Below, piece after piece: positions 3,886-57,245 of a stretch of DNA of 64,000 bases. The notes beneath the pieces were generated by a model. It ran no database searches. It was not told the DNA's origin and worked only from the letters and a program-made list of their open reading frames with translations. Both the position numbers and the translations under genes were made by a program. Each line of letters starts with the position of its first letter. Position 1 is the stretch's first letter. The stretch is from the NCBI GenBank assembly GCA_035379625.1, contig DAOSVM010000003.1, forward strand, positions 334 to 64,333, given 5' to 3'. Source of the stretch: Ignavibacteriales bacterium (lineage in GTDB: Bacteria; Bacteroidota; Ignavibacteria; Ignavibacteriales; DAOSCP01).

Positions 3886-5703
3886 TTGTCAAATACTAAC
3901 ATAAATGAAACTCAAATATTTCAATTTATTTTTGAAGTTGAAAATTCTAAACCAAAGTATTTTGAAGCTATTTGCACCAATTTATTAAAAAATAGTGCTG
4001 TTAATAGATATATTTTCAATATACGTGATATTACTGAAAGAATACTTAAAGAAATTGAAAAACAACTTAAAACTAAAGAACAAATTTATCAATCTGAAGC
4101 AAGATTCCGTGTAATCTCAGAAAATGTCCCTGATGTAGTAACTATTGTTGACTTGAATTATAATATTTTGTACATTACTCCTTCAGCACAAAACTTGTTT
4201 GGAATTTCGCCTAATCGTTTAATTAACTCTGATATAAAAATCTTATTTGAAGAAAATAACTTAACTCAGTTCATCACTCAATTTGAGGAAGTGCAAACTA
4301 ATTTTGAACATAAAACAAGTGAATATAAGCTCAAAAAACTTGATAAAAACAATTTAAGTTTTACCGCTGAAATTACAACAGGTTTAATAGTTGACGATGA
4401 AAGTGCCAGAGTTGTTGTAACTATAAGAGATATTGAACAGAAAAAATTAGCTGAAGAAAAATTAAAAGAATCTGAAGAAAGATTTCGATTTTTAGCAGAA
4501 ACTACTGGTGATGCCCTTTATAGATATAGATATGACACATTGAAATACGATTATCTTAGCCCAGCCATAAGTATCCTTACTGGTTATACATTCGATGAAT
4601 TAAATTATATAGGTTTTGAAAACATAATTTTAGAAGTTGAATATCCAGAACAGGAATTTCCAAATGTTTTTATGCCAGAACTCAACGAAACAAATACAAG
4701 ACTAATAGCTCAGTATAAAATAAAGACTAAAAATGGCGATGAAAAATGGTTAGAAGATCACGCGTTTATATGGAAAGAAAACGAAAATATTGTTGGAACT
4801 GTTGGTATTTTACAAGATATAACGCAAAGAAAAATTCTTGAACAAAAATTGAAAGAGAGGAATACAGAACTCGAAAGAACACTTGAAGAATTAAAACAAA
4901 TGCAATCTCAATTAATTGTTACTGAAAAATTAGCTTCAATTGGTCAGCTAACAGCAGGAGTAGCGCATGAAATAAATAATCCATTAGGATTTGTTTCTAG
5001 TAACTTGAACCGATTTGAAGAATATTTTTATGATTTATATGATGTATACAAAAAATGGGCAGAATTACGCGAAATATTAAGAAGTATTGCAGAATTTACA
5101 ACTGCTATAGATAATATTGAAAAATTTGAGAAAAAAGTCGATGTTGAATATATTTATAACGATTTTTCACACTTGATGCAGAATAGCAAAACTGGCATTC
5201 AGAGAATTAAATCGATTGTTGAGTCACTTAGAGGTTTTTCATACTTAGGTTCCGCAAGTGTATCTTTAGCAAACATAAATCAAGCAATTGATGAAACTAT
5301 TGTTATGGTATGGAACGAATTAAAATACAAAGCAATTATTGAAAAAGATTATTCTGAAATACCAGAAATTGTTTGCAATATTGGCGAAATTAAACAAGTA
5401 TTCGTTATTTTACTGATAAACGCATCTCATGCAATTGAAAGTAATGGAATTATAAATATAAAAACTTATAATGATAATAAATACATATATGTTGAAATAT
5501 CCGATAATGGAATTGGAATACCTGAAGAAAATTTACATAAAATATTTGATCCTTTTTTTACCACAAAGCCTGTTGGTAAAGGTTCAGGATTAGGTTTATG
5601 GATATCAGCAACGATTATTTCTAAACATAATGGAGAAATTAGTGTAAAAAGCCAAAAAGGTGTAGGTACAACTTTTTTAATTAAATTACCAATTAATGTT
5701 TAA
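3886..5703 (+). CDS. PAS/PAC sensor histidine kinase, C-terminal fragment (PAS x3, HisKA, HATPase_c); this frame is actually open from 3679
   Basis: H-box AGVAHEINNPL, N-box LLINASHAI, G1 DNGIGIP, G2 GKGSGLGL. The frame is open upstream of the TTG at 3886 and there encodes a canonical PAS start (RYEALIKNTSDVILVCDAYGTITYASP). Confidence 0.85.
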   Translation: MSNTNINETQIFQFIFEVENSKPKYFEAICTNLLKNSAVNRYIFNIRDITERILKEIEKQLKTKEQIYQSEARFRVISENVPDVVTIVDLNYNILYITPSAQNLFGISPNRLINSDIKILFEENNLTQFITQFEEVQTNFEHKTSEYKLKKLDKNNLSFTAEITTGLIVDDESARVVVTIRDIEQKKLAEEKLKESEERFRFLAETTGDALYRYRYDTLKYDYLSPAISILTGYTFDELNYIGFENIILEVEYPEQEFPNVFMPELNETNTRLIAQYKIKTKNGDEKWLEDHAFIWKENENIVGTVGILQDITQRKILEQKLKERNTELERTLEELKQMQSQLIVTEKLASIGQLTAGVAHEINNPLGFVSSNLNRFEEYFYDLYDVYKKWAELREILRSIAEFTTAIDNIEKFEKKVDVEYIYNDFSHLMQNSKTGIQRIKSIVESLRGFSYLGSASVSLANINQAIDETIVMVWNELKYKAIIEKDYSEIPEIVCNIGEIKQVFVILLINASHAIESNGIINIKTYNDNKYIYVEISDNGIGIPEENLHKIFDPFFTTKPVGKGSGLGLWISATIISKHNGEISVKSQKGVGTTFLIKLPINV

Positions 5704-5710
5704 GGTGTGA

Positions 5711-6874
5711 ATGGAAAATACTAACTTAAAATTGCTTATTGTAGATGATGAACAACCAATATTATCTGCTCTAAAAAGCCTTCTTAGAAAAGAGAATTAT
5801 GATATTTATACTGTAGACAATCCGAAAGAAGCTATCAAATTATTATTTACCGATAAATTTGATATTGTCATTTCTGATATGAGAATGCCAGAAATCAATG
5901 GAATCGCTCTTTTAGAAAAAGCTGCAGATTTTAACCCAAATTCATATCGTATTATTTTGAGTGGTTATGAAGATAGAAATATTGTTTTTGGCGCTATTGC
6001 TTCCGGATATGCTCATGCTTATATGATGAAACCCTGGGAAGATCAATTTTTGAAAGATGTACTTTCTCGCTCAGCAAAAATTGTAGAGAATGTAGTAAAA
6101 GTTGACAACAAAATTCTTCTTTCAAAGCTTAATTCTTTACCTACAGAATCAAAGTTTTCTGAGTACATTAGTAATATTATCAATGATGAAGATATTTCTA
6201 TAGATAAATTATCTGAAATGATTGTAAAATCTCCGGCTATTCTTTCCAAACTTCTACATTTATCAAACTCTGTTTATATAGGCTCAATTGGAAGAATTAC
6301 TACTGCTAAAGAAGCCATACATTTCCTAGGTATTAATTATGTTGTTACTCTTTTAAATAGTTTTGAGTTTATTAATAGCTTTTATAATACATTACCCCCG
6401 ATAATTAAGTTTTTCTTAGATTCATGGTTAGAAATATCTTCTAAGAGAGCAAAGATAGTAGAGATGATTATACAATCTAATGAAAGTTCTACCAAAAATG
6501 AACGCGATCTTTCAGTTATAGTTGCAATGTTTTGGGATCTTGCTATACTAATTGAAGCCTGTTTATTCCCAGATCATTTCATTAAGATTTTAGATAATAA
6601 TTATAAAGTTACCAGGGAAAATGCTTTAAAAAAATTTGGTGATAACTTTTATTTTCTTGGAACATTACTCTTGGAAATTTGGAATTTCCCATATATTATT
6701 ATTGAACATATAAATAATTTAATTACTAGTAATTTTATTAGTAATATTGAGCAAGCAGTATTATTAAGTGACTGCATTGTCACAAATTCTGAAATTCCAT
6801 TAAATTTATCTTCTGAAATAAAAGAAAAATTACTATATTGGAAATCAAAAACAAATTTTAATGAAGCCATATGA
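5711..6874 (+). CDS. Response regulator, receiver domain fused to an HDOD domain
   Basis: REC motifs (LIVDDE, IVISDMRMPEING, KPW). The C-terminal half has an HDOD-like pattern (LPTESKF..., KSPAILSKLLHLSNSVYIG, KEAIHFLGINYV). Confidence 0.8.
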   Translation: MENTNLKLLIVDDEQPILSALKSLLRKENYDIYTVDNPKEAIKLLFTDKFDIVISDMRMPEINGIALLEKAADFNPNSYRIILSGYEDRNIVFGAIASGYAHAYMMKPWEDQFLKDVLSRSAKIVENVVKVDNKILLSKLNSLPTESKFSEYISNIINDEDISIDKLSEMIVKSPAILSKLLHLSNSVYIGSIGRITTAKEAIHFLGINYVVTLLNSFEFINSFYNTLPPIIKFFLDSWLEISSKRAKIVEMIIQSNESSTKNERDLSVIVAMFWDLAILIEACLFPDHFIKILDNNYKVTRENALKKFGDNFYFLGTLLLEIWNFPYIIIEHINNLITSNFISNIEQAVLLSDCIVTNSEIPLNLSSEIKEKLLYWKSKTNFNEAI

Positions 6875-8115
6875 ATGTAAATTTTGTACCTAATAAAAAA
6901 GTTCTTTATATAGATGACGAAGTGCATTTATTACATGCTTTTAAAGCGTTAATGAGAAAACAAGATGTAGAAGTATTTATATTAGAAGATTCTACAAAAT
7001 TTCAAGAAGAAATTGAGAAAAACGGTCCATTTGCAGTAATTTTATGTGATCAAAGAATGCCTGGCATTAAGGGTGTAGAAATATTAGAAAACCTTGCTAC
7101 TACTCATCCCGATACTATAAAAATACTCATTACCGGATTTTCTGATTACAACGATACTTTAAGAGCCATTAATAGTGGAGGTATATCCCGCTATATACAA
7201 AAACCTTGGAATGATGCTGACTTAAAAAATACAATATTAGAAGCAGTAAATAATTATAACCTACTACAAGAAAATAAATACCTTATAGATGAGCTAAAAA
7301 AGAATAATATTTTACTTACCGATCTTATTGATGGTGCGTTGGTTAAAACTGTTAAGCTTTTAAGCGATGTCTCAGGTTTCTCTAATCCTGAAGCAGCAGC
7401 ACAAACTAACCGAGTAAAAAAACTTGGAATGGCAATCCTTGCAACTTATAAAGATTTATCATTTGATACAAAATGGCATATAACTTGTGCATTTGAATTG
7501 TTCAATCTTGGTATTGCTTTATTACCAGCTTGGTTGCAAGTTGCTTTGGCAAAAGGTGGATTAGCTACTTTAAGTCGTTTTCCTGCTGCAAAAAATCATA
7601 ATATACTTGCGGCTAATTTACTTGAAACAATTCCGCAATTTTCTCCTGTTGCTGAAATTATAAAACTATATACAAAAAATTTTGATGGAACAGGTGAGCC
7701 TGAAGATATCAACATATCAGGTGATAATATACCATTTGGTGCTAGATTATTAAATATTGTTATTGAATATGACAGATTAGCAAATGAAAACTTCAAAGGA
7801 GAAGCTGTTCTCCGTGATATGATGCAAAGACCAAATAGACATGATATTAGAATCATAGAGCATATTCTTCAACATTTAAGACCTCAACCTCAGGATAAAT
7901 CTATTATCACACCATCTGAAGAGCCAATTAATTTAACTATTTCACAATTGTTGCCAGGTATGATATTAGCAAACGATATAGTTTCTGAAAATGGAACGAA
8001 ACTTTTAAGTGCTAATACCATTATTAGTGATCTTGAATTGAACTTCCTGAGAATTTGGAGTAGTGCACGAAACGAAAAAATTAAAGAACCTATAACAGTT
8101 CTTTATAAAAAATAA
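6871..8115 (+). CDS. Response regulator, receiver domain fused to a degenerate (probably inactive) HD-GYP-like domain
   Basis: REC motifs (YIDDE, VILCDQRMPGIKG, KPW). The C-terminal region aligns by eye to HD-GYP (FDGTGEP...IPFGARLLNIVIEYDRL) but lacks the HD and HHE metal ligands. Its ATGA start overlaps the upstream gene. Confidence 0.75.
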   Translation: MNVNFVPNKKVLYIDDEVHLLHAFKALMRKQDVEVFILEDSTKFQEEIEKNGPFAVILCDQRMPGIKGVEILENLATTHPDTIKILITGFSDYNDTLRAINSGGISRYIQKPWNDADLKNTILEAVNNYNLLQENKYLIDELKKNNILLTDLIDGALVKTVKLLSDVSGFSNPEAAAQTNRVKKLGMAILATYKDLSFDTKWHITCAFELFNLGIALLPAWLQVALAKGGLATLSRFPAAKNHNILAANLLETIPQFSPVAEIIKLYTKNFDGTGEPEDINISGDNIPFGARLLNIVIEYDRLANENFKGEAVLRDMMQRPNRHDIRIIEHILQHLRPQPQDKSIITPSEEPINLTISQLLPGMILANDIVSENGTKLLSANTIISDLELNFLRIWSSARNEKIKEPITVLYKK

Positions 8116-53775: not shown

Positions 53776-55083
53776 TTATTTGCTAATTGATTTTAAATAT
53801 TTTGCTTTTGCTATTTCATAATCAACAATAGATAATGTATAATTTATATTAGCTTGTAATACTGTTGTTTCTGCGTCTATCAACTCTGAGTTATTAACCA
53901 GCCCATTCTTATATTTTTCTTTCGTTATTTTATAATTAAGTTCAGCTTGTTCCAAAGTTTCTGAGCTAATATTTATTTTTTCAAACATTTTCTCTAGGTT
54001 TAAATAATTTTGAGTTACTTCTAAATTTATCTGGTCTTTCAAAATTTCATAACTCTGTTTAATTTGTTCAAGTTGAAATTCTGCTTGTTCTGTTTGGTAT
54101 TTCGGCAGCATCCAATTCCACAAATCGAAGGATAATGTTATTCCTAAATCCCAACTACTTTTGAATTCCTTTTTTTGTGGTATATATCTTTGATTTGGAT
54201 TTGAATAAATAAAATCAGCAAAGAAAAATATCTGCGGATACCAACCCGCTTTGGATAGAGTAATAGCAGAATTTGCTGCTTTTATTCTCATTTCAGTGGA
54301 AAGTAATTCTTCCCTATTCATTAAAGCATTGCTAATTCCATCATCAAGCTTAGAAGTATGCTTTTCTAAAAATTCTGGTTTATCTTTTAAAGTAATTTTA
54401 GTATTAAGTGGCAAACCAATCAAACTGTTTAAAAACAATAATGCTGTTTGTATACCATTTTCTGCATCAATCATAAGTAATTTTGTATTTGAAAGCTGAA
54501 CTTTAACTTTCATAACATCATTATCTGTAGCCAATCCATTTTTATAAAAATTTTCCACATCATTTAAATGAGCTTCTACCATAGTAATATTTTGTTGAAT
54601 ATTTTCTTTTAATTTTAATGCTCTATAATAATTCCAATACGCTGTTCTAATATTCAAAATTAATTCTTTCTCATCCTTTTTAAATTCCAATATAGAAGCA
54701 TTTTTATTGTATTCAGCAATTTCCGTTGCTGATGATAACCTAAAACCAGTAAATATTGGCTGGTTAAGTGTAATTTTAGTTGAATAATTATCCAAAATAG
54801 GGCTAAATGCTTTTGCGATACTCGAAGCTGCAGGTCCAAAATTTGGCGCCCCAACATCACTTAAACGAGTATAACCAGCAGTAAATTTCAAAGTCGGATA
54901 TTCTGCTACTTCTGTTTCTTTATATTTAGCCTCTACAGATTTAACTTTGTAATCACTAATTTTTAAACTTTTACTATTCTCAAGACCTATTTTTATACAT
55001 TCTTCAAGGCTTAAACTTTTGACTTCTTGAGAATAAATATTATTACTTAATAAGATTAGTATCCCAATTATAATTTTTTTCAT
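53776..55083 (-). CDS. TolC-family outer membrane efflux protein
   Basis: Signal peptide, a two-fold internal repeat and a typical TolC N-terminus (LSLEECIKIGLENS). Confidence 0.9.
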   Translation of the reverse strand: MKKIIIGILILLSNNIYSQEVKSLSLEECIKIGLENSKSLKISDYKVKSVEAKYKETEVAEYPTLKFTAGYTRLSDVGAPNFGPAASSIAKAFSPILDNYSTKITLNQPIFTGFRLSSATEIAEYNKNASILEFKKDEKELILNIRTAYWNYYRALKLKENIQQNITMVEAHLNDVENFYKNGLATDNDVMKVKVQLSNTKLLMIDAENGIQTALLFLNSLIGLPLNTKITLKDKPEFLEKHTSKLDDGISNALMNREELLSTEMRIKAANSAITLSKAGWYPQIFFFADFIYSNPNQRYIPQKKEFKSSWDLGITLSFDLWNWMLPKYQTEQAEFQLEQIKQSYEILKDQINLEVTQNYLNLEKMFEKINISSETLEQAELNYKITKEKYKNGLVNNSELIDAETTVLQANINYTLSIVDYEIAKAKYLKSISK

Positions 55084-55574
55084 ATTTCCACCAATATTTT
55101 TATTAATATATCAATCACTTTCGAAGTTATCTCTGAAATCACTTCATAAGCTTCAACAATTTTTTTCCTATCTTCTTTATCTAATAACTCCAAATAATAA
55201 CAGTGTTTCTGAATAAATTCCTTTTTCTTTTTTTCTAAAATTTCAATTCCATCATTTGTTATACGTACAATTGTTTTTCGCCTATCATATTGATCAATAA
55301 TTAAATCAATATAACCAGACTTTAACAATTTAGATAAGTGCTGAGAAACTGTGCTTTGTGCTAGTTTTAATATATTTTTTAACTCATTAACTGTACATTC
55401 GCCAACATCTCTTACTACATTCAACAATTGATAATGCTGCATCGAAAGTTTATCATCGCTTTCGAAATTAACATCACGATTAGCTAAAAAAATTGCCCTC
55501 ATCATATTTGGGATACTTTCAACAATTTTCTCAGCAGCCTCTATGGTTTCTTGTTCAAAATTTATATTTTTCAT
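55080..55574 (-). CDS. MarR-family transcriptional regulator, first gene of the efflux operon
   Basis: Winged-HTH pattern (CTVNELKNILKLAQSTVSQHLSKLLKSGYIDLIIDQYDRRK). It overlaps the tolC-like gene by 4 nt, and GGAG lies 7 nt upstream of the ATG. Confidence 0.85.
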   Translation of the reverse strand: MKNINFEQETIEAAEKIVESIPNMMRAIFLANRDVNFESDDKLSMQHYQLLNVVRDVGECTVNELKNILKLAQSTVSQHLSKLLKSGYIDLIIDQYDRRKTIVRITNDGIEILEKKKKEFIQKHCYYLELLDKEDRKKIVEAYEVISEITSKVIDILIKILVEI

Positions 55575-55596
55575 CTTAGCTCCAAATTATTTTACA

Positions 55597-55639
55597 TATA
55601 TACAATATTATTTACAATAAATTATATTTATATACGATA
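55597..55639. promoter_or_regulatory. Candidate operator pair in the marR promoter region: TATATACAATA and TATATACGATA, 32 bp apart
   Basis: Two copies of TATATAC(A/G)ATA lie 25-65 nt upstream of the marR ATG. The same 11-mers form the core of the copy-B phased repeats. Confidence 0.3.
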
Positions 55640-55646
55640 CCGGTTT

Positions 55647-55755
55647 GCGGCTTGCTGCTTTTTGTATTAACTTCTATAACAGCAAAACTGCATTGTAATT
55701 TTAAGATATTTTTTAGAAATATCAAAATATTTTTTCAATAATTGCAGCAAGCCGC
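55647..55755. repeat. Perfect 12-bp GC-rich inverted repeat (GCGGCTTGCTGC / GCAGCAAGCCGC) enclosing 85 bp of AT-rich DNA
   Basis: 55647-55658 is the exact reverse complement of 55744-55755. Confidence 0.7.
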
Positions 55756-55759
55756 TGTT

Positions 55760-56237
55760 AGCTTTTTGGTTTGGTGTTTTTATGTAGTTCATAAGGCTGA
55801 CACCAAGACAGGGTTGGGCAAAAGAGGTGTTTTCTTTCAAGATATATGTCGTTTTTTGTTTGGAGAAAATTTGTTATGTACCGTCGGAAAGTTTGTAATC
55901 AGTCTCTGAATTTAATCTTTTACTGGGTTTTCGGGAGCATTGGTTTTGTCTGTCCGTCAAGTTTTGTAATGATTCTGGGGTTATTTCCCAACCGAGAAAA
56001 TTTGTCATTTTTTTTGCCGAAGTGGCATTGACGTCAAATTGAATTGACGAGTACTTAACAATTTGTTCAACCTCAAAATTACAGAAAAATCGACAAGCCT
56101 TTTTCACTTCAAACTTCTCGGGCAAACTACCTTCCAACCGGATTTAATACAAATTTTTTCACCTTATCGGACATGAACAAATTTTAGGAGTATGACTTTC
56201 CAAACAACAACTTCCCTAAAACACCAAACTTGAAGCT
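55760..56237. other. 478-bp non-coding element bounded by long-range inverted repeats (candidate structured RNA or non-autonomous mobile element)
   Basis: GTTTGGTGTTTT (55769-55780) pairs perfectly with AAAACACCAAAC (56218-56229), and there is an outer AGCTT/AAGCT pair. GC is coding-like, but there is no convincing ORF and stops occur in all frames. Confidence 0.4.
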
Positions 56238-56255
56238 AAAAATATACAAAAAAAA

Positions 56256-57245
56256 TTATCGCTTGTCAAATTTTAAATTATAATATAAAAGAAAAATAAA
56301 ATAACAAAGCAATACAATTATATTATAAATATTATTATAAATTATTTCATAGATTTGATAAGTCATATCTTGTGGCATTGCAATACTTATGAACCAATAT
56401 GTATTTTCTAATTTCACAGGTATATAATGGTATACAAATTCTTTAATTTTTGTAGGATTTTCAGAAATATTTGTTGAAAATTCCCTGCCATTATTGATAA
56501 ACAATTCATACTTTTTTAATGTCTTGTTTAACTCATACAAACTAACACCTATAAAATCTTTATTCGGATAAGCTGCTATAATACCTTGTTGTGTTATTAT
56601 AAAAGAATAAATATTACTTTTGTCGTCATGTATTTTATCAATCATATTTTGAAGATAATCAAGGCTTAAGTCAACACCTGCAACACCTAAAAATTCGTTA
56701 TTTATAATAATCGGATAACAAAAACTTACAACTGTTATATCTTTTCCAGCTATTTTATATGTTATTGGTTTTGTTATAAAGGATTTTCTTGTATTTTTGG
56801 GAATATTATAATAGTCACCTCTTTCATCTTTCCTATCAAAATCTACACATGGTTCAAAATAATATTCATTTTTACCTCTATTCCAATAAGGGATAAATCT
56901 TCCGGTGTTATCATGCCCTAATTGATTAATGAATAATTTATCTTTATTATCAAATTTATTTGGTTCCCATACTGTCCAAATGCCAAATAACTCTGGCCCA
57001 TTTATCAATATTTCTTTCATTATTACAGTTACAAATTCTCTGTTTGTTTTATTCTGTTCTTTCATAATTTTTAATATATTTTGAAACCGTTTGGCAGTAT
57101 TCTCTGCTTTTATAAAATTAAAAGAAATATCATAACCAATTTTATAATAATTAGTTATATTATTTTGTTCTATACGAATTACGTACAAATTACCAAAGAC
57201 AATCAACAAAAAAAATATTAATGATATGACTAAATAATTTTTCAT
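56256..57245 (-). CDS. Cache-type extracytoplasmic sensor domain protein with two TM segments and no output domain
   Basis: TM1, then a Cache-like domain of about 270 aa, then TM2. The ORF ends 6 residues after TM2 (NLKFDKR). Confidence 0.65.
   Translation of the reverse strand: MKNYLVISLIFFLLIVFGNLYVIRIEQNNITNYYKIGYDISFNFIKAENTAKRFQNILKIMKEQNKTNREFVTVIMKEILINGPELFGIWTVWEPNKFDNKDKLFINQLGHDNTGRFIPYWNRGKNEYYFEPCVDFDRKDERGDYYNIPKNTRKSFITKPITYKIAGKDITVVSFCYPIIINNEFLGVAGVDLSLDYLQNMIDKIHDDKSNIYSFIITQQGIIAAYPNKDFIGVSLYELNKTLKKYELFINNGREFSTNISENPTKIKEFVYHYIPVKLENTYWFISIAMPQDMTYQIYEIIYNNIYNIIVLLCYFIFLLYYNLKFDKR

Follow-up and report, generated by a model that had tools for sequence, protein, structure and literature searches.

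The marR-dCache intergenic gap

A stretch of 64,000 nucleotides from the genome of an Ignavibacteriales bacterium (assembly GCA_035379625.1, contig DAOSVM010000003.1), here called the window, contains an intergenic gap of 681 bp (positions 55575-56255) between marR, the first gene of a marR-OEP-HlyD-AcrB-type operon, and a gene encoding a dCache protein. Within this gap, positions 55641-56239, read on the minus strand, quite probably represent a gene-less cassette in complete form, with a non-coding payload followed by a recombination hairpin resembling the attC sites of integrons. The gene-capture system to which it would belong is of the integron type and of the Bacteroidota/Ignavibacteriota kind. 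The element has a G+C content of 0.32-0.38, compared to 0.21-0.30 in its surroundings (payload 0.361, whole window 0.279).

An earlier note on this DNA had described a 478-bp element with complementary ends at positions 55760-56237, and had taken it for either a large structured RNA or a decayed mobile element. All of the sequence features that it listed are present in the window. These are the terminal pairing of GTTTGGTGTTTT (55769-55780) with AAAACACCAAAC (56218-56229), extended by AGCTT (55760-55764) with AAGCT (56233-56237), the complementarity of GGTTGGG (55812-55818) and CCCAACC (55987-55993), the TTGACGTCAA palindrome with the CGTCAA/TTGACG hairpin, located at 56032-56049, direct repeats (recovered as D1-D3 in the repeat analysis), the raised G+C content, and longest open reading frames (ORFs) of 87 and 61 amino acids (aa) without a Pfam family. 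The limits had to be redrawn. The discrete unit is 55641-56239, and it includes a perfect 12-bp inverted repeat (GCGGCTTGCTGC/GCAGCAAGCCGC, at 55744-55755 and 55647-55658), adjoined by TGTTAGC on the plus strand, which had been held separate. The two-way reading of mobile element or RNA stands in part: the unit is mobile, non-autonomous and non-coding and its ends are paired, but it is neither a decayed transposon or miniature inverted-repeat transposable element (MITE) nor a syntenic, vertically inherited RNA gene.

Limits of the unit: copies in other genomes and an empty site

Exact-pattern scans of genome and metagenome contigs, followed by blastn, revealed copies of 98.8-99.8% identity spanning 55638/55641-56239 at four loci (L071, L072, L082 and L083) and a partial copy at a contig end (L067). 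Payload variants that are approximately 90% identical (variant B) occur in L024 (Bacteroidales Bact_19), L063 and L078, and variants that are approximately 75% identical (variant C) occur in L011, L013, L015 and L046, the sequence of the window being variant A. The B and C variants are found in metagenome-assembled genomes (MAGs) of Bacteroidales, Bacteroidia and Ignavibacterium. None of the copies shares the flanks of the window. The flanks diverge on the left after ...AAC (AAC|GG) and on the right after GCTAA (GCTAA|C), both of which are G|TT on the sense strand. At least four different upstream neighbours are present, with homology ending at G|TT on both sides, and beyond the right limit each contig carries another, different hairpin of the same architecture. 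Several contigs end within the element, as is expected for a sequence common to the genomes of one community. A distant blastn search of the plasmid collection gave no match to the element, and a search of viral contigs gave one 19-nt chance match only.

The same limits are marked by the syntenic site in the one same-genus genome compared (G001). On its contig G001:C4 the gene order, DUF255-Cache-marR-OEP, is identical and the cassette is absent. When the flanks of the window are joined without 55641-56239, they align to G001 with no gap and no duplicated base: the window reads ...TTGACA-N17-TATATT-T | GTATCGTATATAAATATAAT..., and G001 reads ...TTGACA-N17-TATATT-T GTATCGTATATAAATATAAT.... What has been inserted corresponds precisely to a single cassette opened at G|TT, 5'-TTAGCTTCAAG......GCCGCAAACCG-3', and its location, TATATTT|GTATCG in the dCache-marR spacer, is a non-att (secondary) site. 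On this comparison the insertion into the Ignavibacteriales chromosome appears to be recent, and the empty site in a same-genus relative does not agree with the syntenic single-copy RNA gene that the earlier note had allowed for.

In DNA searches of this genome and 40 relatives, no second copy was found in the genome of the window, which also speaks against the multiple copies predicted for a MITE. A covariance model of the site (R1, see below) gave no more than one marginal 21-bit match when used to search the same genome, and an architecture-based finder that recovers known sites returned no intact site of this architecture there. As there is neither another site nor an integron integrase in the host, the cassette is now stranded. 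A decayed copy, consisting of the hairpin and approximately 90 nt of payload, is present in G001 (L010/L023, G001:C17 ~5243-7345, site at 5971-6126). It lies within a 2-kb stretch without an ORF of more than 66 aa, in a context unrelated to the window locus.

The dCache protein has no output domain in either species (329 aa in the window, a 356-aa frame at G001:C4:67705-68652). Truncation of the Cache gene by the cassette was considered and rejected, as the orthologue in G001 is just as short and the flanks join at the empty site without a seam; the protein is short in both species, indicating that its shortness is ancestral and not caused by the insertion.

An attC-like site of variant architecture

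The attC sites of integrons are imperfect palindromes of approximately 57-141 nt or more, whose R'' (RYYYAAC) and R' (GTTRRRY) boxes are complementary to each other and which also have inner L'' and L' boxes. In its sense (minus) reading, the cassette is 5'-TTAGCTTCAAG...payload...AGCTAAC-A-GCGGCTTGCTGC...loop...GCAGCAAGCCGC-AAACC-G-3'. The site of the window has the attC arrangement of boxes (AGCTAAC ... GCGGCTTGCTGC / GCAGCAAGCCGC ... G|TT, continued as AGC in other copies), with G instead of Y at position 2 of R''.

Scanning one genome per species for TTGCAGCAARCCRCTGTTAGC gave 13 loci, one of which is a chance match in Actinomycetota. The other 12 belong to Bacteroidales, Bacteroidia, Chitinophagaceae, Flavobacterium and Ignavibacteriales/Ignavibacterium, and many of them lie at contig ends. 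The aligned loci have a common architecture, consisting of a ...CTAAC box, a short spacer, a 12-bp stem (often longer), a loop of 85-110 nt, the complementary stem and a GTTAGC box. Stem sequences differ between subfamilies, and the DNA flanking the boxes is unrelated from locus to locus. Paired cells amount to 81% in the aligned sites, compared to 19-53% in slid controls. RNAalifold was uninformative when applied to the unedited alignment of the hairpins, owing to the poor match of their loops, and no covariation could show in the 3' arm because the search pattern had fixed it.

The covariance model R1, built from the attC-like site, and an architecture scan detected more sites on the same strand, 0.5-4.4 kb apart, in L020, L022, L016, L012 and L013. 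The sites lie a few bases past the stop of one ORF and a few bases ahead of the next start, and the array genes run in the direction of the sites' sense strand. A co-oriented array with sites of the same architecture is also present in L035. The orientation of the array ORFs indicates that the sense strand of the window site is the minus strand. Spacers apart, this architecture corresponds to that of integron attC sites and their cassette arrays, and the site is a variant attC architecture. In addition, a 627-bp contig of Flavobacterium odoriferum (L021) is bounded at either end by one half of a site from this attC-like family (R1 matches at 1-57 and 574-627), which fits a single cassette assembled alone.

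The paired ends of the element belong to this site. The sense strand starts with TTAGCT-TCAA-GTTTGGTGTTTT and its stretch up to and including R'' reads AAAACACCAAAC-CAAAA-AGCTAAC. The AGCT(T)/(A)AGCT portion is the R-box pairing, the first bases of the cassette representing the 3' portion of the R' box that belongs to it, and the 12-bp helix lengthens the R-box stem on the payload side. What had been described as the closing helix of an RNA or as 20-bp terminal inverted repeats (TIRs) prolongs, in the outward direction, the R''/R' stem of the attC-like site that the cassette itself carries. The pairing of the ends goes beyond chance, with the terminal helix being retained in diverged copies: it is kept over 10 bp in the C variants, and the eighth R-box pair shows a compensatory change from T-A to G-C (AGCTT/AAGCT in the window, AGCTG/CAGCT in L011, L013 and L046). 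Since the helix is kept and this pair covaries, the start of the cassette and the R'' region would form one long, nearly continuous stem in the excised circle, with the crossover point mid-way. The features of the locus are listed in Table 1.

Table 1. Features of the marR-dCache gap and its borders (window positions; sense-strand features are given in the direction of reading where this was recorded).
Feature	Position	Strand	Remark
Probable whole gene-less cassette, 599 bp	55641-56239	minus	99% copies with the same limits; exact absence from the syntenic site of G001
attC-like recombination hairpin, 125 nt	55641-55765	minus	covariance model R1, 117 bits
R'' box AGCTAAC	55765 to 55759	minus	followed by a 1-nt spacer
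L'' box GCGGCTTGCTGC	55755 to 55744	minus	followed by an 85-nt loop
L' box GCAGCAAGCCGC	55658 to 55647	minus	followed by 5-nt spacer AAACC; crossover G at 55641
Non-coding payload, 474 nt	55766-56239 (56239 to 55766)	minus	no conserved ORF
Conserved core, sense 5' half of payload	56239 to 56028	minus	A-C identity 80-85%
Left arm of terminal pairing (AGCTT...GTTTGGTGTTTT)	55760-55780		overlaps R'' of the attC-like site
Right arm of terminal pairing (AAAACACCAAAC...AAGCT)	56218-56237		first 22 nt of the cassette in sense: R'-derived TTAGCT and 12-bp extension
Sigma-70-like motif TTGATA-16-TAAAAT in the attC loop, facing marR	55698-55725	minus	10/12
Resident promoter-like site TTGACA-17-TATATT of the marR operon	56269 to 56241	minus	11/12, best of the region; conserved in G001
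Original marR upstream region, starting GTATCGTATATAAATATAAT	55575-55640	minus	displaced 599 bp from its own -10 box; starts with the right half of the split palindrome; G001 alignment
Sub-threshold match to Na+ riboswitch RF03071	55812-55870	plus	28.3 bits, gathering score 40.5, E 0.0016; judged chance
marR	55080-55574	minus	first gene of the marR-OEP-HlyD-AcrB-type operon
dCache gene, 329 aa	56256-57245	minus

Neighbouring cassettes and an apparent integron-like platform

The genes next to the copies in other genomes are co-oriented with the sense strand. They encode GmrSD-type nucleases, DNA methylases, an HNH nuclease, an NB-ARC/NACHT protein, a type I specificity subunit, a ferritin, a peroxiredoxin and a Na+/H+ exchanger. 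A restriction-modification-type module with a DNA methylase is present downstream of the cassette in three of the four array contexts, with the methylase as the first gene downstream in L082 and L083 and as the second in L071. These methylase and nuclease neighbours indicate that the cassette travels in defence-gene arrays. In these three independent contexts, the module immediately downstream includes an N6_N4 DNA methylase (L071 4845-6377, L082 773-2164, L083 9162-10028); in L083 the methylase is followed by the HNH nuclease and the NB-ARC/NACHT protein, and L071 has two GmrSD-type genes upstream. L071 and L072 have the backbone gene for the Na+/H+ exchanger in common. The cassette abuts the exchanger gene in L072, and a methylase module of approximately 4.8 kb separates the two in L071, a difference that looks like cassette gain or loss at a distal attC.

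L035 (G050:C33, 57-8410), which comes from the same MAG as L024, carries what looks like an integron-like platform. Two tyrosine recombinase genes, encoding proteins of 318 and 378 aa, lie there in the same orientation. Approximately 150 nt past the recombinase gene, GAG|TTATGGGC is found, a possible counterpart of the attI site that adjoins the recombinase in a complete integron, followed by an ORF and three attC-like sites that share its GTTATGG box (at this one locus, read by eye). The three hairpins are approximately 133 nt long, have CCATAAC/GTTATGG boxes and lie between co-oriented ORFs, and the cassettes encode MORN-repeat and Por_Secre_tail (sorted by the type IX secretion system) proteins. 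No match to the integron integrase family TIGR02249 exceeded the cut-off in the 12 site-bearing genomes, and a tblastn search with the L035 recombinase on all element-bearing loci found nothing nearby. Integrons have been recorded in Ignavibacteriae, Chlorobi and Bacteroidetes (PMC9024848, PMC8618304).

Promoter context of the insertion

The 5' end of the cassette lies 1 nt past the -10 box of the resident promoter-like site. The insertion also splits a palindrome, TATATTT-N11-AAATATA, which overlaps this promoter motif (56241-56269 and 55621-55640, minus strand) and is kept in both species. As judged from its sequence and position, the split palindrome is a plausible candidate for a MarR operator. 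The motif in the attC loop is also present in four diverged relatives, with TTGAAA or TTGAAG as the -35 box, TAAATT as the -10 box and a spacing of 16-17 nt, the sequence of the spacer being variable. Its conservation was assessed by script for G001 (L010) and by eye for L011, L013 and L018, using the loop alignment and the sequence of L011. Given the position of the insertion, the marR-OEP-HlyD-AcrB operon would be expected to be read from a cassette leader of approximately 0.66 kb, from a cassette promoter, or from both. The cassette may thereby act in cis as a regulatory module, in the manner of the promoter cassettes without genes that occur in Vibrio and Treponema integrons.

The following course of events is proposed. 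The cassette would move as a circle, which a tyrosine recombinase would open at G|TT in the R' box. A putative recombinase of this type would have inserted the circle at the secondary site upstream of marR without target duplication. The sigma-70-like promoter in the attC loop would then be directed at the downstream gene, and the payload, being self-complementary, may serve as an insulator or may assist the folding of the site.

The payload: coding capacity, conservation and folding

A six-frame comparison of 13 copies revealed no conserved reading frame. Single-base homopolymer indels shift the 87-aa frame among the 99% copies, and the C variants carry in-frame stops. No family was assigned to four ORFs by Pfam, and the 87-aa ORF matched only itself in a search against 5.8 billion proteins, in agreement with the earlier view that the element is non-coding. 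A micro-ORF of 15 codons, MSDKVKKFVLNPVGR* (56127-56174, minus strand), has its frame and stop kept in the 75% variants, where its ATG is replaced by TTG. It is not regarded as coding because its five substitutions show no third-position bias. Rfam searches at relaxed E-values, the check that the earlier note had suggested, covered the two strands of this region of the window as well as those of variants B and C, and gave chance-level matches only and no credible family.

Conservation is concentrated in the sense 5' half of the payload (56239 to 56028), in which A and B are 100% identical and A and C 80-85% identical; in the 3' half these values are 78% and 60-66%, respectively. Single-sequence folding compared to shuffles gave z scores of -2.2 (minus) and -3.0 (plus), and folding of the three-variant alignment compared to column shuffles gave -4.35 (minus) and -3.07 (plus). 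Long-range helices between 56229-56219 and 55779-55769, 56160-56149 and 55874-55863, and 56142-56129 and 55892-55880 are present in all variants, and the conserved islands in the poorly conserved half match the pairing partners of these helices. Nearly all of the pairs predicted on both strands are Watson-Crick pairs. The covariation across the three variants is suggestive, with a power that is low because only three independent variants are available.

Points that weigh against a standard integron cassette

Several observations weigh against the interpretation as an integron-type cassette with a structured, regulatory payload. In the genome of the window, the best stretch for the integrase family TIGR02249 reached 83 bits, compared to a cut-off of 265. 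The 378-aa recombinase of L035, the one array head examined, reached 208 bits with the same model, and it is short by approximately 40 residues relative to VchIntIA (PDB 2a3v), between chain residues 181 and 242, where VchIntIA has its IntI-specific insert. The score below the cut-off and the missing insert indicate that this enzyme is no canonical IntI. Nor does the target TTT|GTA belong to the GTT type of secondary site. The spacers are 1 nt in the 5' arm and 5 nt (xAACC) in the 3' arm in every site examined, including unrelated sites of the same arrays, and a C.A mismatch recurs within the 12-bp L stem in 7 of 11 sites (alignment A2, columns 32/162; GCGGCTTGCTGC versus GCAGCAAACCGC). The fine structure of canonical attC sites, with an unpaired central spacer in both arms and extrahelical bottom-strand bases, was not seen in the sites examined; the C.A mismatch may be a conserved stand-in for the extrahelical bases. 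Regarding the payload, the pairing signal is equal on both strands and G.U pairs are equally frequent, a symmetry that makes RNA and DNA-level structure indistinguishable from these data. Ten compensatory pairs stand against 35 that are broken in at least one of the three variants. The promoter and insulator roles, finally, are read from consensus motifs alone.

Possible roles of the payload and alternative explanations

A bolder interpretation of the cassette can be given. Its cargo could be a conserved self-folding nucleic acid of approximately 470 nt that has spread between classes at 99% identity by means of an integron-like system, either as a mobile structured regulatory RNA or as a selfish single-stranded DNA structure that boosts its own capture, landing outside integrons and rewiring host promoters, here that of a marR-resistance-nodulation-division (RND) efflux operon. 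This proposal is tentative and is put forward as possible but doubtful.

A related explanation is that the payload is a large structured non-coding RNA of approximately 470 nt, either trans-acting or a cis leader, with the terminal helix closing the RNA. The folding z scores, the long-range helices in all three variants and several compensatory pairs are consistent with this, as are a G+C content above that of the host and the strong promoter-like site that abuts the sense 5' end in this genome. However, none of the variants matched an Rfam family on either strand, the frequency of G.U pairs does not differ between the strands, and for 27-35 of the predicted pairs at least one variant breaks the pairing. 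The higher G+C content is explained by the foreign origin of the cassette, as the other host contigs have a G+C content of 31-41%. A structured RNA is therefore considered unlikely.

The equal quality of the pairing on both strands would fit a payload that is a selfish structure at the DNA level. Here, the self-complementarity and the 12-bp extension would stabilise the single-stranded DNA circle or join flanking sites, and would thereby raise excision and integration without benefit to the host. The extension adjoins the crossover boxes and covaries with them, the spread at 99% identity over contexts and lineages is unusually wide, and the element has arrived in a genome without an integron. 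This explanation is purely inferential, and to our knowledge there is no precedent for it. In addition, the payload interior of approximately 400 nt far exceeds what stem stabilisation needs, and the conservation peak in the 210-nt core suggests a sequence-specific function. Such a structure is regarded as improbable.

A payload that is the decayed remnant of a protein-coding cassette gene, drifting neutrally, would account for the ORFs of 61-87 aa, and some gene-less Vibrio cassettes are truncated genes (PMC11014356). However, no frame is kept, neither Pfam nor the protein search returned a relative, the best-conserved micro-ORF lacks third-position bias, and a conserved pairing signal is unexpected for a dead gene, which together make this explanation very improbable.

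The MITE, or another transposase-dependent element with 20-bp TIRs, that had been the mobile option of the earlier note is hardly credible: terminal inverted repeats and a size of approximately 0.5 kb are present, but there is a single copy in the genome and no target-site duplication, the mobile unit takes in a 125-nt hairpin outside the supposed TIRs, and every copy ends not at these repeats but at the G|TT crossover point beside another attC-like site.

A Na+ riboswitch (DUF1646 motif) on the plus strand at 55812-55870 can practically be dismissed: cmscan found the core GGUUGGG...CUUUCAAGAU, and a Na+/H+ exchanger gene lies downstream of the cassette in L071 and L072, but the score is below the gathering score, no plus-strand gene follows, the motif is antisense to both the cassette and the exchanger gene, variants B and C have not kept the GGUUGGG core and gave no match, and genome-wide searches with RF03071 yielded sub-threshold matches only, as they also did in 12 of 14 control genomes.

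Comparison with known systems

Cassettes that lack a gene but act as promoters have been described in the superintegrons of Vibrionaceae (Blanco et al. 2024, PMC11014356), where most of the gene-less Vibrio cassettes tested were active as promoters in the sense direction, and ORF-less cassettes are known from the oral metagenome and Treponema (Tansirichaiya et al. 2019, as cited in PMC8618304). The cassette of the window resembles these in its attC-type bounds, the lack of a conserved ORF, the position of its copies in arrays upstream of co-oriented genes and a promoter-like motif pointing downstream. It differs in that its long payload (474 nt) shows self-complementarity and conservation between lineages, in that the promoter is known here as a motif alone, which lies in the attC loop and not in the payload, and in its hosts, which are Bacteroidota and Ignavibacteriota.

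In common with integron attC sites (Cury 2016; Neron et al. 2022, PMC9024848), the sites described here are imperfect palindromes of approximately 125-135 nt with ...YTAAC / GTTR... boxes and a G|TT crossover, follow ORFs immediately on their 3' side, and combine diverse sequences with a uniform architecture. They differ in the 1-nt versus 5-nt spacers and the recurrent C.A mismatch, and the L035 platform differs from that of integrons in the orientation of the recombinase gene, which is that of the cassettes, and in the missing IntI-specific insert. attC clusters without an integron integrase (CALINs) that consist of a single attC can be real (PMC9024848), and the solo site in a genome without an integrase is comparable to these.

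The genomic event also has parallels. As in bacterial MITEs (Correia, RUP and ERIC), the inserted DNA is small, non-coding, intergenic, bounded by TIRs and foldable into a long stem; unlike MITEs, it is present as a single copy, without target duplication and with attC-type crossover limits. Insertion of cassettes at secondary (non-att) sites by the class 1 integrase was reportedly observed in the 1990s by the groups of Hall/Recchia and de la Cruz/Francia. As in those cases, an entire cassette occupies a non-att site, the canonical crossover marks its ends, there is no target duplication, and the cassette is then immobile. The target TTT|GTA differs from the GNT/GTT type, and the event is deduced from natural genomes. 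Insertion sequences (ISs) and other insertions in promoter regions of the marR/acrR type can alter efflux expression. The locus of the window is similar in having foreign DNA between the promoter and a marR-RND operon, and differs in that the inserted DNA is of the integron-cassette type and is known here from sequence alone.

Significance

The system is not of a new kind, as gene-less cassettes and stranded attC sites are already known. What had been an unexplained structured non-coding island becomes a concrete and testable object, a probable natural secondary-site insertion with an empty site in a sister species. The findings suggest that cassettes of a poorly described, Bacteroidota-type integron-like system cross between genomes of the Bacteroidales and Ignavibacteriales types and land outside integrons. 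A conserved non-coding cassette also allows the roles of promoter, insulator, RNA and DNA structure to be separated. With its insertion point 1 nt past the -10 box of an efflux operon, the cassette points to a route by which integron traffic could alter the regulation of resident genes.

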